Notes: generated by a model not told the origin, from the letters alone. Positions 30,749 through 49,937 are shown, numbered from the stretch's first letter. The stretch is DNA of 64,000 nucleotides from a virus (IMGVR_UViG_3300049332_000001:1762-65761); one strand, 5' to 3'. Numbers and translations: made by a program.

Positions 30749-31166
30749 CAGGAAAGTTACTGACGGCCTCCACGGTCGTCTCGCCCTCCTTCAACTTAAC
30801 AGGCAGCGTTGGGCCACCATTCATGGCCCATGTGTGGATATACCAGAAGTCATTAAGCGGCACATCGTCAGGGCTAAGCTGGCCCTCCCTGGGGTTGAGA
30901 TAAAGCGGCGGATTAACTACCACGTCTGCCAGCACCACGCGCGCAAAAGCCATGAGTTGCTCAAGTTCCTTGTCAGGCAGTTGCTCAATCGCGGCTAACT
31001 GCTCGTCAGGCGTGGCCTTGCCGTTCTTACCGCTTACTTTTTGCAGCACTCGCGCAAACTTTCCCGCCTTAACGGCAAGGTCCGGGCCAGTGCGTCGCAC
31101 CATGACCTCGTTGCCGGATGGACAGGATAGCAACGTGGTCTGCCGCTTTTGCCATTGGTTATTCAT
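30696..31166 (-). CDS. tail assembly chaperone
   Basis: between major tail and TMP; LSCPSGNEVMVRR. Confidence 0.7.
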   Translation of the reverse strand: MNNQWQKRQTTLLSCPSGNEVMVRRTGPDLAVKAGKFARVLQKVSGKNGKATPDEQLAAIEQLPDKELEQLMAFARVVLADVVVNPPLYLNPREGQLSPDDVPLNDFWYIHTWAMNGGPTLPVKLKEGETTVEAVSNFPDGRESNLDTRSDSETVQ

Positions 31167-31792
31167 TACGACTGTGCTCCTGCGTTCTGGGTAAAGTACC
31201 TGCCGACCCTATCTGCCGCTGCGCGCGTTGATACTGCCAGCCCGCGAAACGCTACCGGCGACTTGCTAATATCCTTGCTTGTGATGTTGCCTGCCAATCC
31301 AGCATCGTTGAACGCCTTGTACAGATGCACGACGCCAAAGCGTGTAGGGTCGTCCTCAAACGGCCAGATCAGGGCAATCGACGTGTACTGAGGCTCAGCG
31401 TTGCCGATAGTGACGCCCTGCGAGCCCATCACGTCGCTGCGGGTCAGTGTCGGATTCAGCACTTCCGCCAAGTCCATGTCCATGACTTGAAGCAGCGAAC
31501 CTGAGACTAGCGCCTCTTGCGCCGTAACGCGCGAGATGATTGGGTCAGGGGATTCGTCGGCATTGAAGTTGGTGAAGGTGGGCTTGACTGAGAACGTCCA
31601 GCCCGCATCGGTCCAACCTGCATGCTTGGCGTTTGGATTTTGCGTGGAGTCAGGCGTGCCGTCAGTGTGCAGAATCAGGCGAACACCAGCAGCGCCGTCC
31701 CACGCGCCCGAACCACCACCAAGATCGTAGTAAAACTTGCCCGGTCCAATGCCTACGTCTAACGTGTTGAAATTGTCGGCTGTGCCTGCCAA
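31166..31792 (-). CDS. major tail (tube) protein
   Basis: TTG start with SD AGGAGGTG; GIGPGKFY, GWTDAGWTFSV; position after the tail terminator. Confidence 0.8.
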   Translation of the reverse strand: MAGTADNFNTLDVGIGPGKFYYDLGGGSGAWDGAAGVRLILHTDGTPDSTQNPNAKHAGWTDAGWTFSVKPTFTNFNADESPDPIISRVTAQEALVSGSLLQVMDMDLAEVLNPTLTRSDVMGSQGVTIGNAEPQYTSIALIWPFEDDPTRFGVVHLYKAFNDAGLAGNITSKDISKSPVAFRGLAVSTRAAADRVGRYFTQNAGAQS

Positions 31793-31812
31793 AGTATCAC
31801 CTCCTAAAAAGC

Positions 31813-31850
31813 AAAAAGGCCGCCACTTCTCAGCTAAGAGAAGGGCAGCC
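31813..31850 (-). terminator. intrinsic terminator-like hairpin
   Basis: GC stem followed by TTTTTGCTTTTT on the minus strand. Confidence 0.5.
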
Positions 31851-31899
31851 AGGTAAACGTCAAATTGCGTTTCTTAGACCGCTAGATAGTTGTCAACGC

Positions 31900-32421
31900 T
31901 CACTGCTCATTGAATATGAGCGTAACTTGCATCAGAGCATCGCGGTAGTAAATAGACTCCCGCTCCCTGATTGAACCGTAAACGTGCTCTAACTCCAAAA
32001 CAATGCCGAAGATTATAGCAGACATGTTGCGCTTCCAGTCAGATTTTTGTGCCGAGCGTAATACGGCGTCCATCGTGCCCATATAGCGCATAATCTTGGT
32101 GGTGACGTTTGCGGCTGAGTCGGCGGTTACGCCAACGTAAATATCGAACCTCACCGCCTGCTTAAGACGATCACGGGCATCGGACTCAGTGGCAGCGTTA
32201 CGGTTCGGACCGATGGCTAGTGTGGGAAAATCTAACTTCTGAATCTGCCCTAGTGAGCGTTCCTGAAAGTCCTCAAGGTACTGCGGGTCATCAGGCGAGA
32301 GTGCTGCCTCAATCGTGTAGAACGTATCCAGCGCCTCTTTGAAGTCACGCGTGATGATGAAGAGGGCGTTGTCGATAATCCCCTCTTCCTGCACCGCAAA
32401 GTAGCGAGGCGTCCATGCCAT
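31900..32421 (-). CDS. tail completion/terminator protein
   Basis: position; FPTLAI, VRFDIYV, ALMQVTLIF. Confidence 0.6.
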   Translation of the reverse strand: MAWTPRYFAVQEEGIIDNALFIITRDFKEALDTFYTIEAALSPDDPQYLEDFQERSLGQIQKLDFPTLAIGPNRNAATESDARDRLKQAVRFDIYVGVTADSAANVTTKIMRYMGTMDAVLRSAQKSDWKRNMSAIIFGIVLELEHVYGSIRERESIYYRDALMQVTLIFNEQ

Positions 32422-32903
32422 TACGCCGCTCTCTCTTCAGTTACAAACCCGCTTGCACGAGTGAATTCAACCAATCGTTGCTGGATGCTCTTAACCAGTC
32501 GCCGCTTGCTTTCCTCATTCAGCGAGATGATCGGGCGCGTCTTCTGGTGAATTGGGGCGTAAGGTAGTGCTGAGCCAATTGCCAGTTCATCGCGCTCAGG
32601 GCGTACAATGGAATCCAGTGCGTCAGGGCTGGCCATTGACTCGTATAGCGCATCCTCACGCCGCAGTATTGTCTTACCGGGAAATTCGCGTTCCTTGAAT
32701 AGTTTGTACGCGGGGCTCAATGGCGTCCACTTGCCTGATGCCCCGCTTGCTCCCTCAGTGTGAAACTGCTGCGTCTCAATATCATAAAACGTGGTGATGA
32801 CTCCCGGCCAGAAGTTGCGAAAGTCGCTGATTTCCTGGTCGACGCGATTGAAGGCGCGGTCAAGCACCTCTACGCCCTGAATGCTGGCAGTGAAGCGAAT
32901 CAT
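32421..32903 (-). CDS. virion morphogenesis (Mu gpG-like) neck protein
   Basis: KWTPLS, KILRREDALYES, IGSALPYAPIHQ, RPII. Confidence 0.75.
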   Translation of the reverse strand: MIRFTASIQGVEVLDRAFNRVDQEISDFRNFWPGVITTFYDIETQQFHTEGASGASGKWTPLSPAYKLFKEREFPGKTILRREDALYESMASPDALDSIVRPERDELAIGSALPYAPIHQKTRPIISLNEESKRRLVKSIQQRLVEFTRASGFVTEERAA

Positions 32904-33796
32904 GTAAATGCCGGTCCTGCTACTTTCGCTCGCCACTTACGTGCGACGGCTTTGACACGTGGTGGTATAGCTTCGCGTAACGGCTGGCCCTCAAGTCCGA
33001 CCAGTTTCACTGACGCGGGGTCAGTCTCGCGCCACAGGTTCAGCACCCACTCGATTACCGCCGCCTTAGCGTCAGCCGGGGTCTCACGCCAGCCCCAAAT
33101 CGCAGAGACGGTAATCGGCACGCCTATCCACCATCCCGGCCACGATGAGTAGTTGTAGAAATTGCTGAATGGGGCAAGCATGCCGTTGCTGGACGTCAGC
33201 ACCAAATAGCCATCCTGCTCGGCAAAGGTGGGCACCGTGTAGCCCTCTGGCAATGTAAGCGTTGTGTCAAGTGAGCCCGCAATATACGGCGGCAGGTGCA
33301 AGTAGTTTGTGCCGTCGCTATAGAAAGTTCGCGTTGTGGCGATAGGTATCGGCGCGGCGTTGAAATAACCTTCAGGCACGCCGCACTCAAGGTCAAACAT
33401 GCGACTGGTTTGCTCGATTAGCGCGTCAAGCTCAGCGGGTGTAAGTGCCGTGACGGTCGCGGAACCACCTGAGCCTGCCCCGCCCTGCGCTCGGCGTCGC
33501 ACCTCAGTTGACGAGCAGTAAGCAACGGAACGCTGAATGCGAATCAGGATTGAGCGGTTCTCAGTCTGCGTGTTGCTGGCGTCGTCAACTGCGACAATCG
33601 TGTTGACCAGCTCATAGATCTCGCCCCATGTTCCGCCTGCGAGTTTTACCTGCGTCGCGGTATCGGTGAACGCATCCGCAACAATGGTAATGCCGCTTGG
33701 GCCGGACCACGTTGAGGACTGAATGGTGAGACTGCCCAACCAGTCAGCCCAAGCAATCTCATAGTCAAGCGTTTCAGTTGGTTCCTTGAAGAGCAT
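32900..33796 (-). CDS. head-tail adaptor (gp6/gp15-like) with extra N-terminal beta domain
   Basis: AYCSSTEVR...LIEQTSRMFD...WGW..TPADAK...IPPRV; N-terminal KEPTETLDYEIAWADWL. Confidence 0.7.
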   Translation of the reverse strand: MLFKEPTETLDYEIAWADWLGSLTIQSSTWSGPSGITIVADAFTDTATQVKLAGGTWGEIYELVNTIVAVDDASNTQTENRSILIRIQRSVAYCSSTEVRRRAQGGAGSGGSATVTALTPAELDALIEQTSRMFDLECGVPEGYFNAAPIPIATTRTFYSDGTNYLHLPPYIAGSLDTTLTLPEGYTVPTFAEQDGYLVLTSSNGMLAPFSNFYNYSSWPGWWIGVPITVSAIWGWRETPADAKAAVIEWVLNLWRETDPASVKLVGLEGQPLREAIPPRVKAVARKWRAKVAGPAFT

Positions 33797-36219
33797 TATG
33801 TACTCCGAACCTCTGTGCCAATATATACCACACGCTGCTCACTGCCAATACTCAGCATTTGCCTTGGTGAAAAGTTCACTTGAAGTATATCAGAAGTCAG
33901 TCCCACCTCGGCGGCAAGATGTGCATGCTGCCCGTCCTGCAGGGCAAGCGTGTGCGCCTGCGTGAGCACCGGCGTAGTTGCGCTATGGCTGTGAACGGTG
34001 CCAGCAGCTTGAATCGCATGCAACTGAGCAAGGTCAAGGCTGCTTGCAATGTGCCCGTGTGCGCAGTCCTGCACACTGAGCGTGTTGGTTAGTGTTAGTG
34101 TCGCATTGTCACTGGCATGTGCGTGGGTTGCGCCCCCTACACTCAGCTCATGCAACTGGACCACAGTGACGCTTTCACCAACATGCCCGTGCACACCATC
34201 GGCAACTTCCAGCGTTCCGGGCATCCCCAGGGCGATATTGCCGGCAGCATGGAGATGCGCGCTGGACTGAACCGTCACCGCATGGACTTGCGCCAGTTCC
34301 AGACTGTCCGCAACATGCAAGTGAGCCGCGTCTGCAACTGTGAGCGCGTGAGTCTGTGTTAGCGTCAGGCTGTCAGCCACCTGTCCGTGTGTTCCGTTTG
34401 CAGCAACTAACTCGTGCAGTTGGGTTAGTAGCAGCGAGTCAGCAGCGTGGCCGTGTACGCTGTCTGCAACCAGCAAACCATGCACCTGCGTGATGGTTGC
34501 GCTATCAGCAATATGTACGTGCGTCGCGTCTTGCGTCTCCAGTACGCTGGCAACTGCGATGGTCACACTTTCAGCGTCATGGCCGTGGCTGGCATCGCTG
34601 ATTACAAGCAAGTGCAGTTGCGTCAGGTCAACACTGTCTGCTACGTGCGCGTGAGTCGCATCTGCCACAGTCAACACGACAACTATCGCCACGCTCTCAG
34701 CGGCGTGTTGATGGGCGCTGCTGGTAACTACTAGCTCATGGATCTGCGTAAGCGCAGGGTTGGTTGCTGAGTGCGCATGACTGCTATCCTGGACCACCAG
34801 CGTGTGAGCCTGCGTCAACATGATGCTGGCTGCTGAATGACCGTGCGCAGGGTTGTTGACTGCCAACTCATGCGCCTGCGTGAGCGTCACACTGCCCGCA
34901 GCGTGAGCATGAGTCGCGTCCTGTACCACCAGATCAATAGCCCCAACCCCGGTGGGACTTTTAATCTCTACCAAGCCCACCAGCGTTGGGCTGGCAGTAG
35001 AAAGCGTGAATGAAGCACTTGCCGCAGAGCCTGCCGCATTGAACGTTTGATCGGCGCACGTGATGCCCAGACCGTCCATGCGCTCAGACCAGCCCGCAGG
35101 GGCGGTAAATGTCGGCGTGGCATCAGCAACGCAGGTAGCCTGCACTAAACTGTGCGTGTAGCTGCGTGCCAGCGCATCCCATGTGGATGTAGCTGACGAG
35201 GCGCGAGCGTCCGCGTCAAAGGTTCCTAACGCCGCAGTCTGACGGCAGTTGTAATAGGTGGTAATGCAGACGCTGATTTCCCCTGTGCCGGTGCGATTAA
35301 ATTGCATGTTGGGAGAAGCCGTTGCATAACACCAAAACTTCTTGACACTGGAGCCGCCTCCTGAGGTAATACCGGACCATACGCCGCCAAGCTCAGTCCA
35401 TAGACCAGAGTCGGCAGCGCTCAGCGTCGTTGCGCCTGCCCCTTCCACGGTCGCAATCATCACGTCGGCATTGCCGTTGACGTCGCTGTTGGTGGTGCCT
35501 GCTGGTTTGACTGGCGTGACGCTGGTGCCTGATGCCGTGGTTGCCTGTGAGCCAGCGCGATAGTAGGGATAGTCAGTGCCAGGGATGCAGATGATGCCTG
35601 AAGCCCAGCGCGCGCCTGACGTAGGTGAAGCGTCCTGATTGCTTAGCGTCGTGTTCTGGTCCGCAATCACCTGACTGCCTGCGTTGATGACCAGCGTGCC
35701 GCTAACGACTGCCTCGGCATCCTGCGTGTAGCCGGTCGGGTCAGGCGCGTTGGTGGCAGCGCGTGCGCCATAACAGTGCAACGCGAGCACTTCAGGCGCG
35801 GGTGTGACCACAGTCGGCGGGCGAATCGGGTTGGCAGTGCCGGTGCTGAAGCCGCGTGGACCGTAGTTGGGCGTGACAAACGGTGATTCAAGGTCAGCAC
35901 CGCGAACAGTGCGACAGGTGGCAAGCCGGGTGACAGTCGCCCCAAGCGTGCAGACTGGGTTAGTGAGTGGTAGCGAGTCCCCGGCAACTACCTTGCGCCA
36001 CAGCCACGTGCCAACAATGCCGTTACTGGAGGTACCAACAGTGCGTTGGTCTATACGACTCCAGCCGGTCGGATTGCCAGTCCACAGCACATTGCCTGTG
36101 TTGGCAACGTAGATGATCAGCAGATCGCCAACCGCGTGCGTGGAAAGCGTGACGGTGATCGTGCTGCCCGTACCACCGGGGTTAGTTGCTACTGCGTTGA
36201 ATACGGTTGGGTTTGCCAC
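33796..36219 (-). CDS. virion fibre protein with 16 His-rich 22-aa repeats
   Basis: two N-terminal beta domains then repeats such as QDATHAHAAGSVTLTQAHELAV. Confidence 0.7.
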   Translation of the reverse strand: MANPTVFNAVATNPGGTGSTITVTLSTHAVGDLLIIYVANTGNVLWTGNPTGWSRIDQRTVGTSSNGIVGTWLWRKVVAGDSLPLTNPVCTLGATVTRLATCRTVRGADLESPFVTPNYGPRGFSTGTANPIRPPTVVTPAPEVLALHCYGARAATNAPDPTGYTQDAEAVVSGTLVINAGSQVIADQNTTLSNQDASPTSGARWASGIICIPGTDYPYYRAGSQATTASGTSVTPVKPAGTTNSDVNGNADVMIATVEGAGATTLSAADSGLWTELGGVWSGITSGGGSSVKKFWCYATASPNMQFNRTGTGEISVCITTYYNCRQTAALGTFDADARASSATSTWDALARSYTHSLVQATCVADATPTFTAPAGWSERMDGLGITCADQTFNAAGSAASASFTLSTASPTLVGLVEIKSPTGVGAIDLVVQDATHAHAAGSVTLTQAHELAVNNPAHGHSAASIMLTQAHTLVVQDSSHAHSATNPALTQIHELVVTSSAHQHAAESVAIVVVLTVADATHAHVADSVDLTQLHLLVISDASHGHDAESVTIAVASVLETQDATHVHIADSATITQVHGLLVADSVHGHAADSLLLTQLHELVAANGTHGQVADSLTLTQTHALTVADAAHLHVADSLELAQVHAVTVQSSAHLHAAGNIALGMPGTLEVADGVHGHVGESVTVVQLHELSVGGATHAHASDNATLTLTNTLSVQDCAHGHIASSLDLAQLHAIQAAGTVHSHSATTPVLTQAHTLALQDGQHAHLAAEVGLTSDILQVNFSPRQMLSIGSEQRVVYIGTEVRST

Positions 36220-36224
36220 GTTCG

Positions 36225-39143
36225 TTAGACTACGATTTCATCAACCCGTCGCAGTTCCAGGCTGGTGTTCGTGCCAGCTACGTCGATGTCCATGCTTACC
36301 TCGACGCCGGGGCTAAGCACGACGATGCCTGTTTCGCCACCACCCTGCGATTCGATGATGGCTTGTTGTTGCGGTACTTCACCGTCAGCAGTGCGTGAAC
36401 TGATAACTGTGGTGACCACTGCGCCAGGGGCTTCAACAACCACGTTCTTTAACTCATACTCAGCCGGTGGGTCACCGCCCATGCTGTCGCTGGTGCTGGC
36501 TGATGAGGCTAGTAGCTGCAAGGGAAACAGGGGATCGTCGGTGTTTGGGCCTTCGTAGCAGATGACAATGCCGCATTCATAGAGCGTGGCGTCGGTGAAG
36601 TCTTCAACGTTAATCAGCGCCATGCCAATGGTTGCAGCAGCGGATGGATATGTGTTTCCAGTAACAGGGTAATACAGCAGCGAGGGTGTGCCTGACGGTG
36701 AGCCGTGAACTTCTTCTTCAGGTTTGTCAACACCGTCAACCACCGGATACACATATCCTGAGGCAGGACCGGTACTGACCTTGGTCCATACCCACGCCAT
36801 GTAGCCGACAACGGATTCGCCGGAGACGTCAACGTCACCTGCTGACGCAGCTTGCAGCGTGTAGGTTTGGCGTGCGGTACCGATAGCAGTTGCATGCTGC
36901 CTGTAGTTGGTTTCACTGACGGGACGCTCGTTGACCGCGCCGGTGCCGCCTGTGGTGGCCCAAGTGTCCTGATTGACACTGGCAGGCAGTTTGGCTGTCA
37001 TCAGTTTGTTGCCAGGGTCGGAGAGATCGTCGCCGTCGTCAACGTAGAGATGGGTGAACCATGCAAGGTGATCAGCGCCGGGATTGCCGATCCAACCATA
37101 CTCCAAATCAGGCAGGCTGAACGATCCGTTGCCATTGGTAATTACCCCTTCGACTGCAAGTTCTTCCACGCTGTTTATGTAAACCCTGGCATCCATGTCG
37201 TCAGTGCCATTAATCACATAAGCCAGACCAATGCGATACCACGTGTCGACCAGCAGCACGGAGATACCATCATAGCCTTCCGAGGCCGTTGTATTGTTGC
37301 CGCCCGCAAGCCTCAGCACAACGCCCGCGCCTTTCGGTGTCACGGCGAGGCGAAACCCTTCACTGCCCACCGCGTCAACCACTCGCAATATCCCTACTGG
37401 CAGGTGATAGACAACTTCCACCTTCACATAATCCCAACTTTGCGTGTGCGCTGTGTCAGTGTCGCCGCGTCGGGCTTCGGCAATGACCTCGAACACGCCT
37501 GCCGCAAAGTCTGGCGGCGTCCAGCCGCGCTCTGCAGTGACGTCCACCGTGACTACCGTATCCACCAGCGGCATGTCGGCGTTGTCATAGTTTAGCCCCT
37601 CCACGCCGTCAATGCGTGTCTTCACACGCGAGATGCCAATGGACGTGTTGACGTCGTACTTGCGCTCGTAGATGATCTTGACTGAATCGATAACAGCGGA
37701 GGGTGGAACGTCAATCGTGTTAGGCCCGGAGAATCCATAGACCGACCCCTGACCTGCGTTCTTGGCTGGAGATGCTGTAGCATATGAACCATCGTCAACG
37801 TTGAGGTTGCCATGACTGGAAAACCCTCCACCTGAATAAGCCTCAAGCTGCGAACTGTTCACAAACTCCGTCAACGTCACTGAATCATCCGGCACCGAAT
37901 CATAGCGCCAGTAGAAACTCACACGGCGACTTGCGCCCAATACACCTGGCACCTTGACAACGGCGTTCTCACCAGTGTCGGAATCAAACTTCCATGAACC
38001 TGCGCCCGCAACTTGCTGGCTGGAGTCGTAGCTCACTGTTCCAGCATCGACGCTGTTGAAGTAGCCTGTTGCCTGCACTGCGTCGCCACCCGAGTCAAGC
38101 CACGTGATTAGGAACGTGCGTGCGTTGGGGCTTTGTGTCGTGTGGGCGTGGGCTGCATTAGCCACCGCAAGCACGTGCGTCTGGGCCAGCGTGACTGTGT
38201 TTGCAGTGTGCGTTTGAGTGGCGTTCTGAATAGTTAAGTCGTGAACCTCTGCCAGTGCGACGTTGCCTGCTGCCTGAGCGTGAACAGCATTATCAACAGC
38301 AAGCGCATGAACTTGGGTGAGGACTACACTAGCCGCCGACTGTGCGTGACTGGCGTTGGCTACCACAACGTCATGCACCTGCGTCAGTGCGACGGTGGCT
38401 GCGGCATGCGAGTGACCAGCGTCCTGTAGGGTGATGTTCGCCTCAACACCTTGCACAACCCATAGCGCTGCCCCTGTTTCGGCGGCAGAGATGGTGCCTG
38501 TCATGCGCAGTGTGGCCGTGGCTCCCGCGCTTACTAGCCGATAGCCAAGGTCTGCTGCCCCATCGTCACCCGTAGTAGTTGAATGATGCGTGGCAGGGGA
38601 CTCAACGTAATTCCCGTTCCATGTGATCGCGCCAGTAGAATCATCAATGCCGTTAGTGGGCCGCGTCATGGTGGCCGTATCGTCACGAATGCCAATTAGG
38701 CCCATGACTACGCCGCCGCCAAGCACGTTGACGGTTGAACTGGCCGCCACGGTCTGCGAACTGGTGGTCCAGTTAGTCATGGCTGCGGTAACAGCAACAG
38801 GCGTCAGCCACGTGTCGCTCGCGACCTTCGCCATCACCATGATCACAGCACTGGCATTGTTAGGGCTGGCAGAGAAATCGATTGTTGGATCGGTGTCGCC
38901 TGACTGCCAATCACGATACCAGCAGGCAACCTTGACTGAGCCGGTGCCATTGCCAGTAGCAACTGCACCATCGGCAAACTCGATTAACTCAGTCCAGTTG
39001 GCAACCGTCGCCGTAACGGCAAAGTCCTTCCAGCGCGCAAACAGGTACATGCGGTCGCCTGCCTGGGGAGTGGCAGGGATAGCAACTGAGCCGTCTGCGA
39101 TTAGCTCAGCCCACGTGCCTGTGACGCGAAAGGAGACTGCCAT
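36225..39143 (-). CDS. virion fibre/lectin-like protein with 5 His-rich repeats
   Basis: same repeat type; LamG-like stretches; likely start ATG 39143. Confidence 0.65.
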   Translation of the reverse strand: MAVSFRVTGTWAELIADGSVAIPATPQAGDRMYLFARWKDFAVTATVANWTELIEFADGAVATGNGTGSVKVACWYRDWQSGDTDPTIDFSASPNNASAVIMVMAKVASDTWLTPVAVTAAMTNWTTSSQTVAASSTVNVLGGGVVMGLIGIRDDTATMTRPTNGIDDSTGAITWNGNYVESPATHHSTTTGDDGAADLGYRLVSAGATATLRMTGTISAAETGAALWVVQGVEANITLQDAGHSHAAATVALTQVHDVVVANASHAQSAASVVLTQVHALAVDNAVHAQAAGNVALAEVHDLTIQNATQTHTANTVTLAQTHVLAVANAAHAHTTQSPNARTFLITWLDSGGDAVQATGYFNSVDAGTVSYDSSQQVAGAGSWKFDSDTGENAVVKVPGVLGASRRVSFYWRYDSVPDDSVTLTEFVNSSQLEAYSGGGFSSHGNLNVDDGSYATASPAKNAGQGSVYGFSGPNTIDVPPSAVIDSVKIIYERKYDVNTSIGISRVKTRIDGVEGLNYDNADMPLVDTVVTVDVTAERGWTPPDFAAGVFEVIAEARRGDTDTAHTQSWDYVKVEVVYHLPVGILRVVDAVGSEGFRLAVTPKGAGVVLRLAGGNNTTASEGYDGISVLLVDTWYRIGLAYVINGTDDMDARVYINSVEELAVEGVITNGNGSFSLPDLEYGWIGNPGADHLAWFTHLYVDDGDDLSDPGNKLMTAKLPASVNQDTWATTGGTGAVNERPVSETNYRQHATAIGTARQTYTLQAASAGDVDVSGESVVGYMAWVWTKVSTGPASGYVYPVVDGVDKPEEEVHGSPSGTPSLLYYPVTGNTYPSAAATIGMALINVEDFTDATLYECGIVICYEGPNTDDPLFPLQLLASSASTSDSMGGDPPAEYELKNVVVEAPGAVVTTVISSRTADGEVPQQQAIIESQGGGETGIVVLSPGVEVSMDIDVAGTNTSLELRRVDEIVV

Positions 39144-39150
39144 GGTTAGC

Positions 39151-39178
39151 AAAAAGGCCCGACCATACGCCGAGCCTT
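39151..39178 (-). terminator. intrinsic terminator-like hairpin
   Basis: AAGGCTCGG...TCGGGCCTTTTT on the minus strand. Confidence 0.55.
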
Positions 39179-39215
39179 CCTTGTGGTTTCAGCTTAATGG
39201 ACTCTCGGCGACAAG

Positions 39216-39584
39216 CTAAGTCGGATCAGCAATCTCAACCTTCCACGCAGGGATGTTGACGGTGTTCCCGCTGGTGAGCACCTGCGACGTGCAGGTAGTC
39301 ACGTAGAGCAACCGCGTGGCATCGCACAGGGCAACATGATCCGCCGTGCCTGACGTGTCAACAGGAACCGCGCTCTTGGCCGCCACCGTACACTTGCGCC
39401 CGCTGGTGTCGCCGTTCGCCTTGGTATAGTCAGTGTTGGGTGTCATGGCAACGTCAGCCAACTTGTTGGTGGTTACCGCTTCCGTGCGCGTGGTGGGCTG
39501 ACCCGCGCAGACAGTCATTATGTCCGCTTGGTCCAACACATCGAACGCGCCGTCTAAAATATCATCGTGAACGATCTTCGCCAA
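39216..39584 (-). CDS. small virion structural protein (decoration/fibre-base-like)
   Basis: GTADHVALCD...TSGNTVNIPAWKVEI, seen upstream of phage fibre genes. Confidence 0.6.
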   Translation of the reverse strand: MAKIVHDDILDGAFDVLDQADIMTVCAGQPTTRTEAVTTNKLADVAMTPNTDYTKANGDTSGRKCTVAAKSAVPVDTSGTADHVALCDATRLLYVTTCTSQVLTSGNTVNIPAWKVEIADPT

Positions 39585-39585
39585 T

Positions 39586-39777
39586 TTAGTTTACCTCCGC
39601 ACTGTGGCCTAGTTGTATATCGGCAACATCAAGAGTTGCGCCTTCACCTACCGCTCTCTCACCAATCCATCCTGCCTGTTGAAAGTACTGAGCATCATCG
39701 GCCGATACCTCATAACTCTCACCAGCTTCGTAAGTCTCTGCACCATGCTTAAACGTCTGGTTTGGAACGACAATCAT
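39586..39777 (-). CDS. small hypothetical protein downstream of capsid
   Basis: FKHG.ETYEAGESYEV...AGWI. Confidence 0.55.
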   Translation of the reverse strand: MIVVPNQTFKHGAETYEAGESYEVSADDAQYFQQAGWIGERAVGEGATLDVADIQLGHSAEVN

Positions 39778-41123
39778 GCCGCTACCTCATCCTTGCGCTT
39801 ACGCTGTTTGTTCTCGTCAGGCGCGGCGATCATCTTGTTCTCCGCTGGTGCCGCAACCGCTTTGGCGTCAGGATTAATCCAACCATTCCTCTGCGCCAAG
39901 TCTGCCGGAACCATTGCCCCTTTGGGATAGAGTCGAACAACTGCCGTAGCAGGTGCCCGATCTTCATCAGTCATCTGATAGTTTCCATCTGCCAGCTTCC
40001 AGATCCAACGATCTGCTTTCCACATTGCCACAGTTCCGTCACCTTTCCCTTTCCATCGATTGGCTGTCTCAATAAACGCCTGCTCCAGCCGATCAAACTC
40101 CTGCTCGGGCTCAATAGACCGCGCTAGTTCAAGCACAATCTGTGAGCGTTCGTGATAGTAGAAGTCGTCAGTCATCAAGCGCGAAACTTCATTGAACCAT
40201 GCGGCCACGTCGTTGCGGTCGATGAAAATGCCCGCGTCGCCAAACGCTTCTTGCAACCCCAGCGTCGGATGCGCGACTGTTGGAATGCCTGCGCAGGCAG
40301 CTTCAATGCCCACGCGCCCGTAGGACTCATACTCTGACGGCATCAGCAGTACCTTGGTTTTGCGAAACACGTTGCGAATGTCCGGCGTGTGGGCCATCCA
40401 CTCAATATTACCGGCAGCAGGCATTGCACCACCTTTGCGAGGGGCGTCTGGCGCAAGGATCATCTGCTCACCATAGCCGCCTTCGACGGCAAGGAATTCA
40501 CTATCAGGCATTAGCCTCGCCAGCGCCTTGAATGTCTCAACTCCCTTGCCCGGCGTCGGATTTACCAGCGTAATCTTTGTGCCGCGCTCGCATTCATAGT
40601 GCTCGCGTTCAACCACAGGATGGACCACGACTGACGGCGCAAGCCACTCGGCGGGCATGGTGAGCCCGTTGTACGAGCTTGGTCTTGCAGCCAGCCAACG
40701 TGAGTTATATACCGTCAACGCATTCTTGTACGGCACACGCGCATCCACCCGCCAGCACATCATCTGCGCATCATTGTGAACGAAATGGACTAACGGAATC
40801 TTGGTTGACATTGCCAGCATCATTGCCTGATTGGTGAGGTCGAGGTGCGTGACAAGAAGGTCGGAGCCTGCAACGTAGTGTTCCAGCCATGACTGTTGAC
40901 CGCGACGTGGCGGGCGCACCACACTGATGCCGTCGATTTCGTAGGGCGCTGTTCTGCTGTTCGCGCAGATTACGCGTACCTGATGACCGCGCTTGACCAT
41001 TGCGCGCAAGGCTGCATGCAACGTGGTTTCAGAACCAGCACAGTGCTCTGGCGGGAAAAGATGGATTAGGGCTGTTAGCTTCATTAGCAAAATGGCGGGC
41101 GGCTGGCCTTCCGAGGAAAGCAA
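39774..41123 (-). CDS. GT4-family (GT-B) glycosyltransferase with C-terminal extension
   Basis: GSETTLH...RGHQVRV; LLMPSEYESYGRVGIEAACAGIPTV (E-X7-E). Confidence 0.88.
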   Translation of the reverse strand: MLSSEGQPPAILLMKLTALIHLFPPEHCAGSETTLHAALRAMVKRGHQVRVICANSRTAPYEIDGISVVRPPRRGQQSWLEHYVAGSDLLVTHLDLTNQAMMLAMSTKIPLVHFVHNDAQMMCWRVDARVPYKNALTVYNSRWLAARPSSYNGLTMPAEWLAPSVVVHPVVEREHYECERGTKITLVNPTPGKGVETFKALARLMPDSEFLAVEGGYGEQMILAPDAPRKGGAMPAAGNIEWMAHTPDIRNVFRKTKVLLMPSEYESYGRVGIEAACAGIPTVAHPTLGLQEAFGDAGIFIDRNDVAAWFNEVSRLMTDDFYYHERSQIVLELARSIEPEQEFDRLEQAFIETANRWKGKGDGTVAMWKADRWIWKLADGNYQMTDEDRAPATAVVRLYPKGAMVPADLAQRNGWINPDAKAVAAPAENKMIAAPDENKQRKRKDEVAA

Positions 41124-41158
41124 TCAACCGCCCTATGGCAACGGGCTGTTGTGCGCCG

Positions 41159-42493
41159 TTACGAGTTTGCGCCGGCAAACAGGTCAATCTTGACCACGGC
41201 GGGGGGTCTTAAAACCCCGAACGCCCATCGACCTTCATACAGGATGTCAATGATATTGCGCTCAAAGTGGTCGCGGTTCGAGTCGGTGATATAAACCGTT
41301 GGATCTTGTCGGTCCCAAACCACCAACTGCTTCAAGTCGCCTGAATAGCCGGTACCTTGCGGGATAACCTCAGACTCAATTACAGGCAGGCCCCAGAGCA
41401 TCTTTGTGCCCATCTGCATGGGACCGCCAAAGTAGAACTGGCCCTGAGCACCACGCGCAAGGTCAATGGTTTCCCAGTCGTAGGGGTTGAGCAGGAAGCC
41501 GGTTGAGCGGGCGCGGCCCTGGACCATTGCGGCAGTGCGTGCTTTGCGGGTCGTAGTCAGCAAGCCGCCAGTGGTGTCCTCGCTGTCGGCAACAAACGGC
41601 TGTGGAGTCAGGTTTGGCGTGTTCTCCAGTCCGGTAAAGTGGTTCGCGCCACCTGGCCCGGCAATGATTTCCTCTTCCAGTTCAAGGTCAATGTCGAGGC
41701 GCATGAAGTTCGTCATCATCGATTGCAGTTGCGGCGCGTCGCTGAGGATCGTGCGCGTGGCCTGCATGATGACGGCAATGGTCTTGACGCCTGTTTGCAC
41801 CACTTCCAGCGCCATGCTTGCTTTGGGCTTGAGGGCCAGATCGTCGGTGGCTGACGTTGCTTCAGGGACAATCGCCGCTGCGCGCGTGAGACTGTTGACG
41901 CGCACGTACTCAATCAGGTTGCTGCCAGTTTGCAGGATGGTAATGACGTCGCGAATGCTTGGCTGGCGCAGCGGCAAGTCAACAGGCCACGGGCCATAAT
42001 CGCGGCGCACTAAGCCGCCGCCTGCAGTCACGGGCACCGACATTACCAGATCCTTGAATGACAGGTCGCCCAGACCGACATCTTTCAGCGCGATGGTAGG
42101 CGAGCGGCCAAACCTGACTGACGCGTTCATCTCCTTGCCTTCAGGAGCAATAGACTCGCGCCATGCCTTGAACTCAGGCGCATTGATAATCGCCTCGCCC
42201 ATTGTCTTGATTTCAGGCTGGCCGTTACCATTACCATTGCCGTTGCCAAAGTCAGGGCGGCCCACAGGCTGCGCGAGAAACGTCTCAATCGCTTTCAGGC
42301 GTTTGCTGCGGTCGGCAAACTTGTTCTCTTCGTCAACCTTGGCGCTTAGCTCTTCAATCGACTTCCAGCGTGTGTCAAGCTCAGCTTGCTGCTCGGTGGT
42401 AGGCGTCTCTGCGCCCTGCTTTTCCCAGAACGCTTTCTCGGCCTCCACCAGCGCCTTAAGCTCCTGTGCTGCTGTTTTCTTTTCTTCCGGCAT
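41159..42493 (-). CDS. major capsid protein, HK97 fold
   Basis: N-terminal coiled-coil delta domain; GGGLV, KTIAV, LLNPYDW, LWGLPVIES, RWAFGVLRPPAVV. Confidence 0.93.
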   Translation of the reverse strand: MPEEKKTAAQELKALVEAEKAFWEKQGAETPTTEQQAELDTRWKSIEELSAKVDEENKFADRSKRLKAIETFLAQPVGRPDFGNGNGNGNGQPEIKTMGEAIINAPEFKAWRESIAPEGKEMNASVRFGRSPTIALKDVGLGDLSFKDLVMSVPVTAGGGLVRRDYGPWPVDLPLRQPSIRDVITILQTGSNLIEYVRVNSLTRAAAIVPEATSATDDLALKPKASMALEVVQTGVKTIAVIMQATRTILSDAPQLQSMMTNFMRLDIDLELEEEIIAGPGGANHFTGLENTPNLTPQPFVADSEDTTGGLLTTTRKARTAAMVQGRARSTGFLLNPYDWETIDLARGAQGQFYFGGPMQMGTKMLWGLPVIESEVIPQGTGYSGDLKQLVVWDRQDPTVYITDSNRDHFERNIIDILYEGRWAFGVLRPPAVVKIDLFAGANS

Positions 42494-42519: not shown

Positions 42520-43461
42520 CTACGCCAGCGCTCGAATGGCGAGGCTTTGCATGCGTAGCGATTGAGTCCTTAGCGCGGCCACGTCGATTGACTTCTCTTT
42601 CGGCTTTGGTTCACTCATTTCCATCAGGTTACTTAGCTCCGTGTGAAGCTCCATGATCTTGTCCATACAGGATTGAACCTTTGCCCGATTAGAGGAAGAG
42701 AGCATCCGGCCTTCCTTGACCCGGTTCTCGTGGTTGCGCTGCATGTTGCTGGTGTGCTTCGCCAATGCGGATACCACATCGTCAAAGGACTCAAAGGAGT
42801 CGGATACCGGCTGGCCTTTGAGGTAGTCAATAATCTTGTCTTTGCCATGCGCAGTTATTAGCGCATCAAGTTCAGATTCCAGTGTTGATTCCACCTGCTC
42901 TGCTGACTTCGCCGCGGTTGCCGTTGCCCGTTTATTCATTGGCGCAGTAACAATGGAGTCCTCAATCGCCTCAACTGATTTCAGGACGCGAATGCGGTTA
43001 AACTTTTGCGCCTTTTCCAGCATTGCGGGCAAGAGATCGGCCTTGATGTACTTAGGCAATTCGGCGTCATAGTCTTTAGCCTCGACATGGACAAAGGACG
43101 TCGGCGCATAACCAAACGAGAAGCCAACGGTTTTACCCGCCGCCAAGCGCTCCTTTGCCTTAGTGCGCACATTCTGCGCGTCAGGCGTGGAGTGAAACTG
43201 TGATTTGACGAACCAACCGTGATCATCTTCGTGCGCGTCAACTGGAAACCCCACTGCTTTATCAAAGTCCCAATCATGAGACTGTGCAGTGAAGCCGCTT
43301 AAAAGGTAGTCGCTGAGCGTATCTTTGAATGCGCCCTTGACAACAATATCGCCGCCTTCGTCAATGACGCCATAAACCGAGCGATAACCCTCGATGGAAC
43401 CCGAGCCATCGTCGGAGACTTTCAGATCCTTCAGGCTGGTAAATTTGCGCTCTATCGGCAT
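42520..43461 (-). CDS. HK97-family prohead protease with C-terminal extension
   Basis: IEGYRSVYGVIDEGGDIVVKGAF, HDW...VG, GFSFGY, EDSIVTAPMN; likely start 43461. Confidence 0.9.
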   Translation of the reverse strand: MPIERKFTSLKDLKVSDDGSGSIEGYRSVYGVIDEGGDIVVKGAFKDTLSDYLLSGFTAQSHDWDFDKAVGFPVDAHEDDHGWFVKSQFHSTPDAQNVRTKAKERLAAGKTVGFSFGYAPTSFVHVEAKDYDAELPKYIKADLLPAMLEKAQKFNRIRVLKSVEAIEDSIVTAPMNKRATATAAKSAEQVESTLESELDALITAHGKDKIIDYLKGQPVSDSFESFDDVVSALAKHTSNMQRNHENRVKEGRMLSSSNRAKVQSCMDKIMELHTELSNLMEMSEPKPKEKSIDVAALRTQSLRMQSLAIRALA

Positions 43462-43465
43462 AAGC

Positions 43466-43508
43466 AAAAAGCCCGTCGCAATCTCCATTGCTGGAAATCA
43501 CGGCGGGC
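43466..43508 (-). terminator. intrinsic terminator-like hairpin
   Basis: GCCCG...CGGGCTTTTT on the minus strand. Confidence 0.5.
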
Positions 43509-44101: not shown

Positions 44102-44300
44102 GGTTAACTACTTCACGCAAGATTGACGTTCGACAATATATCATCCGAAACTCCATAGAAGCCGTGCTCAGCGGCCTGCGACAGTGAAGCCGACTAACGA
44201 TCTCAGTCCACGGTTCTTCATAAACAATTTCCCATCCACTTAAATCGTTTAAGGATTCCGCTGTCCAGAAGTCTTCATCACCAACGCGATCAATTCTCAT
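44085..44300 (-). CDS. hypothetical protein
   Basis: ATGA overlap with the GT11 stop. Confidence 0.45.
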   Translation of the reverse strand: MRIDRVGDEDFWTAESLNDLSGWEIVYEEPWTEIVSRLHCRRPLSTASMEFRMIYCRTSILREVVNLETVQ

Positions 44301-45052
44301 TGCCAGTTGATAACCTCCCACCCCTCGCCGTAAATGTCCTCACCTGTAATCGACGTATATCGCGGTCCAAACCATGGGCGTGGTGCAATCACGCGCTTGT
44401 TTGGTGCCTCACCCAGAATCGCTGCCATTGCGCTATAGGCTGAGTTGGCTATGATGAACGATGTGCATCGTTTAAGTAACCGGAAATCATCAAGGTAGTT
44501 GCGTCCCTCGCTGTAGTCAACCTCGTTGCCAAACATTCGCTTGCACTCGACAATGTCGTCGCTGAAGACGAGAAACTTTGCGCCGGAGAATCGTTCCATT
44601 GCCGCGCGGTAGTAACTCTCAGGCACACGCGGGTGATAGCCGCCGTCGTAGTCGCCGCGCCGGACGTGGATGCCAACGTAGGTGTTTTGTGGGGGCTCGT
44701 CTTTCATTCGCAGCCAAAACCTAACCCCATCAAGACAATGGGCGAAATAGCGTTCGCTTTGCAGGTGCCCGCTGAGGCTAACGCTCTCTGTCAGGCGTAC
44801 GTCGTGATAGCCCCAATTGATGAAACGGCCAGGCAGTGTTGGACCACTGTAAACAGGCAGCGGGTTAACAAAGTGGCGATATACGTCGCAGTCCTCAGTT
44901 GAGCCAAAGCGGTCTTTATGATCGTGGTTCATCCAGCGCGGAAAAGCGAAGTCAAAGCCGTTGCGGCGGGCTATCCCTATCGTGCTCGCAACTTGAAACA
45001 TCTGGTTCGCCAGACGGCCGTAATGGCCTAACGCATTGAAGGTTACTATCAT
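44297..45052 (-). CDS. GT11 alpha-1,2-fucosyltransferase
   Basis: GRLANQMFQ, HVRRGDY, VFSDD, IIANS.YS, VIAPRPWF. Confidence 0.93.
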   Translation of the reverse strand: MIVTFNALGHYGRLANQMFQVASTIGIARRNGFDFAFPRWMNHDHKDRFGSTEDCDVYRHFVNPLPVYSGPTLPGRFINWGYHDVRLTESVSLSGHLQSERYFAHCLDGVRFWLRMKDEPPQNTYVGIHVRRGDYDGGYHPRVPESYYRAAMERFSGAKFLVFSDDIVECKRMFGNEVDYSEGRNYLDDFRLLKRCTSFIIANSAYSAMAAILGEAPNKRVIAPRPWFGPRYTSITGEDIYGEGWEVINWQ

Positions 45053-45090: not shown

Positions 45091-46008
45091 TCACCTTGAT
45101 CCAGCATCTCCCACTCGTGCGCGATACCAATCAAAGGTTGAGCAGAGTCCGTCATACAGGTTGATTTTAGCATGCCAGCCAAGTGCATTAAGGCGCGTAC
45201 TATCTAGCAGCTTGCGTGGCGGTCCATCGGGTTTGGAGGGGTCAAACTTAATCTCGCCGCGATAGCCGACAATCTCAGCAATCATGTGAGCGAGCTCGCT
45301 GATAGTGACTTCTTGCCCGGAACCTACGTTAATTGGCTCACTGTCATTGTATTCAGCCATCAGGGCTATTAGCGCATTAGCAAGATCGTCAACGTGAAGA
45401 AACTCACGCAGCACCTTACCAGTGCCCCAAAGCGTGATTGAACGATCCTCGTTGCATGCTGCCCGGCAAAGCCGCGACATCAGCGACGGAATAACATGCG
45501 CGTCGATGGAGTCAAAGTGATCGTTAGGACCATACAAGTTAGTAGGCATGGCGCTAATCGCATTGAAGCCGTATTGCTTGCGATAGGCTTGGCACATCTT
45601 CAGTCCCGCAATCTTGGCAATTGCGTACCATTGGTTTGTTGGCTCAAGCGGGCCGGTAAGCAGCGCGTCTTCACTGATTGGCTGCTGTGCGTCGCGTGGG
45701 TAGATGCAAGAGGAACCGAGGAAGAGAAGTTTCTCACAATCGTTTAGTCGGGCAGCGTTAATAACATTGCACTGGATTAGAAGATTGTCGCGGATGAAGT
45801 CAGCGGGATAGGCTGAGTTTGCGTGGATGCCGCCGACCTTGGCCGCTGCGAGATAGACATGCTGGATCTTATTACCCCAAAAGAAGCCGTAGGTGTCTGC
45901 CTGGCTTCTTAGGTCAAGTTGCGCGTGGGTATGTGTAACAGCATCAGGTATACGCCGCAGCAATGCACTACCAACAAGTCCCGTGTGACCCGCAACGTAA
46001 ACGCTCAC
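45091..46008 (-). CDS. fcl: GDP-L-fucose synthase
   Basis: GHTGLVGSA, AAAKVGGI, LGSSCIYP, YAIAK, PTNLYGPND, REFLHVDDLA, DGPPRKLLD. Confidence 0.96.
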   Translation of the reverse strand: MSVYVAGHTGLVGSALLRRIPDAVTHTHAQLDLRSQADTYGFFWGNKIQHVYLAAAKVGGIHANSAYPADFIRDNLLIQCNVINAARLNDCEKLLFLGSSCIYPRDAQQPISEDALLTGPLEPTNQWYAIAKIAGLKMCQAYRKQYGFNAISAMPTNLYGPNDHFDSIDAHVIPSLMSRLCRAACNEDRSITLWGTGKVLREFLHVDDLANALIALMAEYNDSEPINVGSGQEVTISELAHMIAEIVGYRGEIKFDPSKPDGPPRKLLDSTRLNALGWHAKINLYDGLCSTFDWYRARVGDAGSR

Positions 46009-46020
46009 TTGTTCTCTCCG

Positions 46021-46470
46021 TTAAGCATACTCGTGCAGGTGAATGACCGCCGGTCGATGGCCGTGTGGCCGCTGACCTGCCTGAAACGCGCGCCACTCAA
46101 ATTGCTGATCCAACTGACTCCAGTGCTTGTCCATGCCCTGCCAGATGTCGGGTAGCAGGTTCATTAGTTCGCCAGAAAACTTGGCGCAGCCAAAGCTATG
46201 AAAGATGCCAATACCATGTTGATCGTACGAGTACGCGCACCACGACGCCGGGCAGGCAATTAACTCTTCCAACGCACCCGGCCACGGCAAAATATCGTGC
46301 TCGATTAGGACAACTGTTTCGCGTTGCTGCCATAGTTCCGTAAGCAGCGTCCAGTAGGCGTCGTCACTGGCACTGACGTCAACGTAATGCGGATTGTAAT
46401 GCCTGAGTAGCCATTGTTGCTCCCGCCGCAACCTCGTGTAGGGAACAACAACCTTCATGTCCGTAGCCAA
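46021..46470 (-). CDS. compact putative GT-A-fold glycosyltransferase
   Basis: VVVPY start, LIEHDILP (DxD-like), GCAKF, LD..F, terminal HLH; context. Confidence 0.5.
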   Translation of the reverse strand: MATDMKVVVPYTRLRREQQWLLRHYNPHYVDVSASDDAYWTLLTELWQQRETVVLIEHDILPWPGALEELIACPASWCAYSYDQHGIGIFHSFGCAKFSGELMNLLPDIWQGMDKHWSQLDQQFEWRAFQAGQRPHGHRPAVIHLHEYA

Positions 46471-47209: not shown

Positions 47210-48025
47210 CTAAACATGCGACCACAACCTCCGACTCAAAACTGCCTTGATAGTTGCAGTCGCTACTCCGAATTCATCCGCGAGCATGGTTATGGTGTGA
47301 ATGTTGGGATTGTACTTTTCACGGATAGAGAGAACAGACCCCCTATTTAGCTTTGCCCGTGGATGCGCTTCGCCTTTTTTACCTTCTCGCCCTTGCATCG
47401 CTTCGCTCAAACGCTGACTCTTCATTTCAGCATGTACGGATGCGAATCCGGGACTCGCGCCCGTCAACGCTACATGGCCCCACAACTTACCGCTCAGGAT
47501 GTAAGCCACTGTTGTTCGCCCAACGCCATATCGTTCGGCAAGCATTTTGTGAGTATAGCGGCCCGTGGTGTACTTTGATCTGATTTCCCGTACGTCGCGC
47601 TCGGTCAAGACGCTATTACCGTTCGACTCGCCTCGCAGTGCTGTGTGCAGACCCGTCTCAACCGCATGAACACCATTCTCTGGCTTAGTACACCATTCTA
47701 AGTTGCTAGGACGGTTGTCAGTCTTGATACCGTTCTTATGGTTAACGAACGGCTTGCCTTCAGGGTTAGGAATGAACGCCAAGGCGATCAGTCTGTGGGC
47801 TAAAAATGTTTGCTTACCAGGCTGCGCAGTAGAAAGAACGGAGTGAGATAAATAGTTACCATCGTCTGACTTAGCAGTCAAGATCCGTTCTCTCTTTAGA
47901 AATGAATAACCCTTTCCGCGCGAACTATGGCCCATCCGGGCTAATGATTTTAGCCGACCGAGAGAACTAGCCTGATAACCCGGAAAGCCCGGAATGTCTC
48001 GCCACTCTTCTATGTGTTCATCCAT
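47210..48025 (-). mobile_element. NUMOD4-HNH homing endonuclease with duplicated C-terminal HTH
   Basis: EEWRDIPGFPGYQASSLGRL (NUMOD4), HRLIA.AF, VNHKNGIKTDNRPSNLEWCT..EN; two GE.h...LT...V..IR repeats. Confidence 0.9.
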
Positions 48026-48636
48026 GATCGGTTGAAGTATAACTCATGATCTAACAGTGGATGGCCCGTTATTTCAGGAAACAGGTGCATATACTCTTGC
48101 TGTAAGAGGATGAGATTTCCGCTGTGCGCCAACAATGCGTAGCCGCGTTCCAGCGCCGCCATCGTCATGGCCCAATAGCCGACGCCGCCGTCGCTGTTGA
48201 CCCGCTCGCCAGGCGGTTCGATGCTGGAGTCAATTTCGACTATCACGATCTTGGGGCGGGCTTGCATGCCGCAGAAAATAGCGTAATCGCTACCATCAGT
48301 ATCCAGACTAAGCAGGTCACAACGTTCGTCGACAAAGGCATTGACGTTACGCGCGTCTACGCGGGAGCACTGGCAACGCACAAGTGAATTGTGTTTCCAG
48401 TTTGAGACGCACTGCTGATAGAGGCCATAGTCAGATTCAACAAACAAGCCCGTCACGACGCTGGTGTCACTCTCAATGAGCCATGCGGTATTAGAGCAGA
48501 AGCGTCCGTTGTGAGCGCCGATTTCAACGCAGTGGAAGATACCGATACCACGCTTCTGGCACTCTAACAAGATCCCTTCCTCACCATTTTGTGAGCAGGA
48601 GATGTTGCGAGCATATTTATGTAGGAAGCTAAGCAC
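48010..48636 (-). CDS. FkbM-like SAM-dependent methyltransferase
   Basis: SQNGEEGIL, VEIGAHNG...SNT, LLSLDTDGSDY, PKIVIVEI. Confidence 0.8.
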   Translation of the reverse strand: MLSFLHKYARNISCSQNGEEGILLECQKRGIGIFHCVEIGAHNGRFCSNTAWLIESDTSVVTGLFVESDYGLYQQCVSNWKHNSLVRCQCSRVDARNVNAFVDERCDLLSLDTDGSDYAIFCGMQARPKIVIVEIDSSIEPPGERVNSDGGVGYWAMTMAALERGYALLAHSGNLILLQQEYMHLFPEITGHPLLDHELYFNRSWMNT

Positions 48637-48856
48637 TGGTTTTCACTACATGCTCCACGAGAGCCCCGCCGTACAATCCATATGTAACCTTAGACGAAAC
48701 CACTTCGTAGGTTACTGAGTCGCGGACGAACATTTCCCCTTGCCCATGAATACGCCTGAAAATATAACGCTCCACCCACAGTACTTCACCGTCCTCGTTG
48801 ATAGCAATCTCCGCTGCCGCCTTAACCGGATATTCTGTTACGCTAGTAGATTCCAT
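48629..48856 (-). CDS. hypothetical protein
   Basis: ORF 75 aa. Confidence 0.5.
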   Translation of the reverse strand: MESTSVTEYPVKAAAEIAINEDGEVLWVERYIFRRIHGQGEMFVRDSVTYEVVSSKVTYGLYGGALVEHVVKTSA

Positions 48857-49647: not shown

Positions 49648-49937
49648 ATCTCATATTCACGTATCTGGTAGACCAAACTATCGGACGCTCGTCCAAACTC
49701 ATCGTAGTACCCACAACTGTCGCGCCGATCTACGATCTCCCACTGTAGGTTCCCGTGACTACCGTCAAGTGACTCGGGTATGTAACGCCTTGCTGCCCCC
49801 ACGGACGCGAATACGCCTTCAAGAAAATCTTCGCAAGCGCAGCCACTAAAGTTATGCGAACGCTCTTTAGGTACCCAGTCGTCACAGGGATAGAAAGCGT
49901 AGAGTAGGTATACGCGCTGTTCAACTCCCTCGCTCAT
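49638..49937 (-). CDS. hypothetical protein
   Basis: ORF 99 aa. Confidence 0.5.
   Translation of the reverse strand: MSEGVEQRVYLLYAFYPCDDWVPKERSHNFSGCACEDFLEGVFASVGAARRYIPESLDGSHGNLQWEIVDRRDSCGYYDEFGRASDSLVYQIREYEICP

Follow-up and report, generated by a model that had tools for sequence, protein, structure and literature searches.

We analyzed a 64,000-nucleotide stretch of DNA (hereafter the window) from an uncultured soil phage, IMGVR_UViG_3300049332_000001, focusing on the C-terminal ends of its major capsid protein (MCP) and its tail tube, or major tail, protein (TTP), and on a group of candidate glycosylation genes that accompany them in the late region. The window spans bases 1762-65761 of a 65.8-kb IMG/VR record with a GC content of 54%, and the minus strand carries all late genes of this record. 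IMG/VR holds a family of ~65-kb relatives of the phage, which come from soil and rhizosphere-type metagenomes.

The genes in question lie in the late head and tail region (Table 1). A cassette extends from a MuF-like head gene to the prohead protease gene and encodes, in this order, a 204-amino-acid (aa) protein, a 269-aa protein, a putative methyltransferase, a homing endonuclease, a 149-aa protein, a GDP-L-fucose synthase and a glycosyltransferase (GT) of the GT11 type. A further GT gene, of the GT4 family, begins 35 nucleotides (nt) past the capsid stop codon, and the TTP gene lies directly upstream of a chaperone-like gene and a 1068-aa tape-measure gene. A GT4 beside the capsid gene and a cassette at 44.3-50.5 kb had been proposed in an initial sequence-only reading of the window, and Pfam matches to the GT4, GT11 and epimerase families, together with a weak methyltransferase match, bear this out.

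Table 1. Genes of the late region treated here, with positions counted from the first base of the window.
Feature	Length (aa)	Position	Strand	Evidence and remarks
TTP (tail tube, or major tail, protein)	208	31166..31792	-	AlphaFold2 fold and Foldseek; TTG start; end ...YFTQNAGAQS
GT4 (GT-B fold) glycosyltransferase	449	39774..41123	-	PF13692 9.7e-13, PF00534 9.5e-12, PF13579/PF13439; phrog_26352 3.7e-70
MCP (major capsid protein), HK97 type	444	41159..42493	-	PF05065 (Phage_capsid) 1.4e-30; phrog_10 9e-44; end ...KIDLFAGANS
Prohead serine protease (S78)		42520..43488	-	PF04586 4.3e-11; between cassette and capsid gene
GT11-type (fucosyltransferase family) glycosyltransferase	251	44297..45052	-	PF01531 6e-15
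GDP-L-fucose synthase (Fcl-like)	305	45091..46008	-	PF01370 (epimerase) 2.4e-55; NCBIfam NF047922 1.9e-135
Cassette protein	149	46021..46470	-	No significant family match; homologues 60-92% identical in part of the family
HNH/NUMOD4 homing endonuclease		47210..48025	-	PF13392 5.8e-11, PF07463 1.9e-9; within cassette, not glycosylation machinery
Putative FkbM-type methyltransferase	208	48010..48636	-	PF05050 2.3e-4, just below cut-off; kept in relatives
Soluble protein, possibly GT-A-like nucleotide-sugar transferase	269	48838..49647	-	ESM Atlas; no Pfam match
GT25-like glycosyltransferase, candidate counterpart of Che8 gp110 / Corndog gp38	204	49934..50548	-	ESM Atlas, hhalign; no Pfam match

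Capsid and Tail Tube Proteins Carry Similar C-Terminal Tags

The MCP ends in AGANS (codons 41162-41176, stop excluded) and the TTP in AGAQS (codons 31169-31183, stop excluded), in agreement with the endings that the sequence-only reading had given over ranges that take in the stop codons. Both tags are short add-ons past the end of the fold. In the MCP, the Pfam capsid match stops at residue 437, 7 residues short of the end, and related capsid proteins (those of Moosehead, JanetJ and the metagenomic locus L016) are 4 residues shorter at the C-terminus. A search of 5.8 billion proteins yielded an MCP family of 120 cluster representatives at 50-99% identity, and the ending G-x-N-S is found in 119 of them, with Gly at position -3, Asn at -1 and Ser at the terminal position 0 each present in 119/120. 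Variation occurs at position -4 (A, P, S, Q, K, or L) and at position -2 (A, T, S, P, or L).

The TTP has no match in Pfam or PHROG. We gathered 166 homologues from a library of 1.8 billion proteins and built an AlphaFold2 model on a 61-sequence alignment, which gave a predicted local distance difference test score (pLDDT) of 90.3 (41 with 10 close relatives). The top Foldseek match of this model is the Douge tail tube (1.9e-7), followed by those of Mycofy1, Bxb1, Mystique, YSD1, and Chi, and 19 matches to solved tail tube proteins were obtained at E <=1e-3. Because of these fold matches, and because its gene precedes the chaperone-like and tape-measure genes, we identify the 208-aa protein as a siphophage tail tube protein, which confirms the assignment first made by eye from the window. 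The final strand of the model runs to residue 203, and the tag residues 204-208 are modeled as coil. TTPs outside the clade (150 homologues examined) mostly end in GDQxGxxWKQ[T/V/I] with nothing after, and are 3-5 residues shorter at the C-terminus. Within the clade, the terminal Ser is present in 22/22 distinct TTP sequences and Gly at -3 in 17 of these 22; the residue at -1 may be Q, G, A, or T, and VAGS, IAGS, SVGS, or AVGS are the endings of the more divergent members. One complete IMG/VR relative of 69,380 bases (L003/L038) has a TTP that is 50% identical and ends in LAVGS together with an MCP that still ends in AGANS; an Fcl homologue was not found within its fetched locus.

These alignments indicate that the pentapeptide AGA(N/Q)S, which had been put forward as a recognition sequon, is over-specified: the MCP is invariant at G(-3), N(-1), and S(0) alone, and the TTP at S(0) alone. 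The conserved core is better put as a short tail in which Gly at -3 precedes a free C-terminal Ser.

The resemblance between the two tags is real and clearly non-random. Among 28 late proteins, the MCP/TTP pair is the only one with 4/5 terminal residues in common, and across the window AGA[NQ]S does not recur at the end of any further stop-to-stop frame of >=50 aa, so that the claim that these two unrelated proteins alone share the motif holds. The chance of at least 4/5 identity is ~7e-5 to 3e-4 for the MCP/TTP pair, and the 378 possible pairings of late proteins would be expected to yield ~0.03 such matches. Codon usage indicates that both tags are selected at the protein level. Synonymous changes occur at every tag codon, with Ser encoded by TCG, TCC, TCA, AGC, or AGT, i.e., including switches between TCN and AGY. 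Within the TTP tag of the window, the codons GCA GGA GCA hold an AGGAG, 8 nt ahead of the ATG at which the next, overlapping gene starts. AGAQS is retained in two relatives (L020 and L023) that lack the Shine-Dalgarno-like GCAGGAGCA of the window; their tag codons are GCC GGT GCT and GCT GGC GCT, the downstream sequence differs, and there is no overlapping start. As these relatives retain the peptide with other codons and another downstream sequence, selection acts on the peptide, and the Shine-Dalgarno overlap was rejected as the cause of the TTP tag. Asn-linked glycosylation was also set aside, as N-x-S/T occurs in neither tail.

Candidate Glycosylation Enzymes

The GT4 protein, whose family is of the retaining GT-B type, comprises two recognizable halves, with PF13579/PF13439 (Glyco_trans_4, N-terminal) matching residues 30-142 and PF13692/PF00534 (Glycos_transf_1) matching residues 237-320, and both GT4 and GT11 exceed the Pfam cut-offs. 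The Fcl-like protein scores 451 bits against NF047922 over residues 2-296, just under the NCBI cut-off of 500; the window shows no gmd gene. The presence of a GT11 and a GDP-fucose synthase implies a fucose-containing glycan. For the putative FkbM-type methyltransferase, whose homologue in the relative L072 has a weak Methyltransf_21 match, a role in sugar O-methylation is possible.

Two further cassette proteins were characterized through more distant similarity. The 269-aa protein is conserved family-wide, and its ESM Atlas matches (0.93-0.95) are to GT34 and TOD1/MUCI70-type clusters, i.e., to a mixture of families. The ESM Atlas score of the 204-aa protein is 0.97, and 25 of its 30 matches are viral clusters bearing PF01755, the family that Che8 gp110 and Corndog gp38 also match. 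Compared directly with Che8 gp110 by hhalign, the 204-aa protein gave an E-value of 0.0056 with the EDD motif aligned and a probability of just 6.5%, and BLAST against Corndog gp38 gave an E-value of 0.07. Sequence searches of the Protein Data Bank with the 204-aa and 269-aa proteins returned nothing significant (the one related hit, to a collagen galactosyltransferase of family GT25, was weak, with an E-value of 0.21), and tblastn with the 204-aa protein found no homologue in isolate phages. This GT25-like protein may start the glycan chain and is, for that role, no worse a candidate than the GT4.

All of these enzymes appear soluble, with maximal Kyte-Doolittle(19) values <1.5 and no hydrophobic segments. 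The homing endonuclease has no full-length counterpart at the same site in the fetched relatives, where only weak partial matches were seen (in L015, L020, and a 241-aa gene of L072), and it is therefore probably a recent insertion. In another relative (L074:4021-5509), the cassette encodes two more enzymes besides the homologue of the 204-aa protein, namely a GT2 (240 aa) and a GT25 (190 aa) that Pfam recognizes, which points to a modular cassette.

Tags and Enzymes Across Relatives

The expectation that the motif would track GT genes among relatives was examined with whole-record Pfam searches of 7 in-group and 28 out-group records (21 longer ones for GT11), the out-group loci having been located from the TTP subcluster alignment and 4 of the out-group records being 98-100% complete. 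GT4 was found in 7/7 in-group vs. 0/28 out-group records, and GT11 in 6/7 in-group vs. 0/21 out-group records. All family loci that span the region have the GT4 and the cassette, including three relatives with MCPs only 50-63% identical to that of the window (L072, L073, and L074), which show the same GT4/cassette layout. Out-group TTPs lack the tag, and we found no GT-less family member. The expectation thus holds between in-group and out-group, the former having both tag and enzymes and the latter neither; it fails for HK97, Charlie, and L016, treated below, and the comparison concerns one clade.

Comparison With Other Phages

To our knowledge, virion glycosylation of phages has been demonstrated for a few mycobacteriophages only and is elsewhere thought rare. 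Mycobacteriophage capsid and tail tube subunits are reported to bear glycans at their C-termini (Freeman 2023, as cited in PMC12619734). The nearest known relatives in kind are the virion O-glycosylation systems of Che8 (gp108-110) and Corndog (gp35-38) (Freeman et al. 2023, Cell Host Microbe 31:1216, through PMC12619734, PMC12363180, PMC11256854), and Che8 gp110 and Corndog gp38 are described as two essential enzymes (PMC12363180). We compared capsid and tail tube ends in these two phages, in four other phages that encode related enzymes, and in four controls (Table 2). A terminal Ser is found at 11/12 termini of the six GT-bearing phages, or 13/14 when the window phage is included.

Table 2. 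C-terminal residues of capsid and tail tube proteins in comparison phages.
Phage	GT gene detected	MCP end	Tail tube end
Che8	Yes	TGS	DGS
Corndog	Yes	VGS	GDS
prophiGD102-1	gp110-like	AGS	AGS
ECP1 (coliphage)	gp110-like	SGS	SGS
Kudefre (Gordonia phage)	gp110-like	TSA	AGS
TurkishDelight	GT4 homologue of window enzyme	STS	VAS
Moosehead	No GT4/GT2/GT25	LTA	GTP
JanetJ	No GT4/GT2/GT25	VAA	PTP
Charlie	No GT4/GT2/GT25	SGS	PAS
HK97	No ECP1-type enzyme	SSGS, as ECP1	TIS

The likeness to Che8 that had been noted from the window extends to Corndog. In both phages the capsid and tail tube proteins for which glycans are reported end in Ser after Gly or small residues, and the phage itself encodes the enzymes, which are soluble, as in the window. 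Among them are a methyltransferase and a GT25-type enzyme, to which the putative methyltransferase and the GT25-like protein of the window may correspond; in Corndog the enzyme genes likewise lie within the late head operon, upstream of the capsid gene. However, the window enzymes have no BLAST-level similarity to the GTs of either phage, the GT25 link being at the level of profiles and language models, and the window phage has an additional GT4, GT11, and GDP-fucose synthase. Its tags also differ in having Gly at -3 and Asn or Gln at -1, whereas those of Che8 and Corndog have Gly at -1. Finally, the glycans of Che8 and Corndog have been reported, whereas the window system is known here from its genes. 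The suggestion that this phage uses a different enzyme set is therefore correct for GT4, GT11, and Fcl, which are extra, and needs amending for the GT25-like 204-aa protein, which appears to belong to the Che8 gp110/Corndog gp38 family; because it includes such an enzyme, the set is not wholly unlike that of Che8.

Two other phages offer partial parallels. The Streptomyces phage TurkishDelight encodes the sole homologue of the window GT4 in an isolate phage (gp20; 34% identity, 9e-37), its GT4 gene lies between the capsid and tail tube genes, and both of these proteins end in Ser. It differs in that the GT4 is in tandem duplicate, no GT11/Fcl cassette is annotated nearby, and Gly at -3 is absent. 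The Escherichia phage ECP1 (Hendrixvirinae) has a Che8 gp110-like enzyme (33% identity, 2e-15), and its capsid and tube proteins share the ending SGS, though its enzyme repertoire and its host are different.

A Candidate Virion-Glycosylation System and Its Alternatives

We consider it plausible, and partly supported by the comparisons above, that the window encodes a virion-glycosylation system of the Che8/Corndog kind, with the C-terminal tails of MCP and TTP as its targets, and we assign this reading a probability of roughly 0.55. Late in infection, soluble cytoplasmic phage enzymes (the GT25-like transferase, a second GT-A-like protein, GT11, GDP-fucose synthase, the methyltransferase, and GT4) would build a fucose-containing, probably methylated glycan and attach it to MCP and TTP, the most abundant proteins of the surface, at their flexible C-terminal tails. 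The short tails (G-x-N-S-COOH in the MCP and mostly A-G-A-x-S-COOH in the TTP) would serve as a common recognition and acceptor element, with the hydroxyl of the terminal Ser as the most likely attachment point. The identity of the acceptor residue and of the chain-starting enzyme, and the action of the enzymes on these two proteins, are what we infer from the gene and tag comparisons; the glycan might act in shielding or otherwise alter surface properties. The recurrence of a GT4 gene after the capsid gene in the window family, in L016, and in TurkishDelight ties the GT4 to the capsid protein. On this reading, the window phage probably joins Che8 and Corndog in a known kind of system, its kit being of a different, fucose type, and does not represent a new kind.

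Several observations weigh against this reading. As it is a single clade that is fixed for the tag as well as the enzymes, their co-occurrence amounts to one evolutionary event. At the locus L016 (L016:3750-6725; MCP 37% identical), the capsid gene is immediately followed by one for a GT4-GT8 fusion (>=558 aa), yet the capsid protein ends in SLA and is untagged, and no cassette is present between portal and protease. In a sister group (L057:711-6668; L054, L056, L058, L059, and L067), a 392-aa protein that unites a methyltransferase with a weak GT2-like region is encoded two genes past the capsid gene, and the ends vary: QGAAN, QGAANS, GAAND, or GAANAA in the TTP and LITAAA, LITAAS, or LITASS in the MCP. 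Control phages without detectable GT4, GT2, or GT25 have Ser at 4/8 termini. Among them, the cluster N mycobacteriophage Charlie (L076:4372-8935) has an MCP ending in PTSGS and a tail protein ending in QPAS in a genome without a detectable GT of these three families, and the HK97 capsid end SSGS is identical to that of ECP1, yet the ECP1-type GT25 is absent and the HK97 tube protein is a different one (L079:16578-19747, L082:4028-7437), so that such an ending alone is no proof of glycosylation. A terminal Ser tail thus fits the known glycosylated cases very well, yet, as far as these genomes indicate, is neither necessary nor sufficient. The near-invariant Asn at MCP position -1 lacks a counterpart in Che8 or Corndog; the GT25 assignment of the 204-aa protein is weak, being drawn from a language-model look-up and a low hhalign score; and the phage is uncultured, its biology being read from a metagenomic record.

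The strongest alternative, which we nevertheless think unlikely, is that the tags are structural or serve assembly: the terminal carboxylate and the Ser and Asn side chains could, e.g., dock into the adjoining subunit or be bound by a decoration or chaperone protein, and the targets of the enzymes would lie elsewhere, on the virion or off it. The Gly-Ser ends of HK97 and Charlie would suit such a role, as would the L016 GT4 that adjoins an untagged capsid gene, and Asn(-1) of the MCP is conserved as much as Ser, which a simple Ser acceptor would not need. Conserved ends are also found on other late proteins, e.g., GPAF[TV] on the Gp77-like protein. A structural role would, however, leave unexplained why a near-identical tail sits on two unrelated folds (P about 1e-4) and why Che8, Corndog, prophiGD102-1, and ECP1 show this pairing as well; moreover, the tails are predicted to be coil past the last strand, and most homologues assemble without them.

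Still less probable is that the cassette acts on host surface polysaccharide or, by glycosylating hydroxymethyl bases, on phage DNA, in which case the likeness of the tails would have nothing to do with it. DNA hypermodification and serotype conversion are the best-known roles of phage GTs (bioRxiv 10.1101/2023.12.21.572611; PMC12619734). However, a scan of early genes revealed neither a thymidylate-synthase-like hydroxymethylase nor a TET/JBP-type enzyme, and the genes are placed in the head operon beside the capsid gene, away from the replication genes. For modification of the envelope, the cassette lacks a membrane protein, flippase, or Gtr-type gene, all of its products being soluble, and neither role would account for the GT4-after-capsid synteny in L016 and TurkishDelight. 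That the two tags coincide under separate constraints, the TTP tag being kept by the overlapping ribosome-binding site and next start (where AGGAG stands 8 nt ahead of that ATG) and the MCP tag for reasons of its own, is very improbable and already largely refuted by the codon data, given the L020/L023 tags, the synonymous variation at all tag positions, an MCP tag that has no such overlap, and the ~0.03 pairs expected.

Should the glycosylation reading prove true, the consequences would reach beyond this phage. The family contains at least 120 capsid clusters (90% identity) with a near-invariant tag on both abundant surface proteins and a seven-enzyme, fucose-type kit, so that sugar-coating of phages would be widespread in soil and phage glycan chemistries more varied than so far known. 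A very short end tag would direct glycosylation and could be borrowed for cytoplasmic protein glycosylation. More tentatively, and with considerable doubt, a short Gly/Ala tail with a free Ser at its C-terminus might be a general, transferable signal for phage GT25-like (perhaps GT4) enzymes in both Gram-positive and Gram-negative hosts; the soil family, ECP1-like coliphages, and mycobacteriophages would then share variants of one C-terminal O-glycosylation code, which in the window phage would specify a fucosylated, methylated glycan, and a tag of 4-6 residues could be moved with its enzymes to any protein, to be glycosylated in the cytoplasm of bacteria. The controls counsel caution here, a Gly-Ser end by itself not being predictive of glycosylation.

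Other Observations in the Late Region and Beyond

The genome offered little to indicate the host: a scan of genome contigs with the capsid alignment revealed no prophage relatives in bacterial genomes, no tRNA genes were found in the phage, and Pfam searches of the lysis-region genes gave no host-specific match. Two very large genes, encoding proteins of 975 and 807 aa without family matches, lie between the GT4 gene and the connector genes (33796-39152). The 975-aa gene is absent in most relatives, and conservation of the 807-aa protein is confined to its first ~419 residues, at ~60% identity. Unrelated proteins of the phage and its relatives end in Ala-Ala, namely the GT4, a 171-aa tail-completion-like protein (32421-32936), and homologues of the 269-aa cassette protein, and a 284-aa tail-region protein (21574-22428) has a Gly...Ser end (GTGLS).

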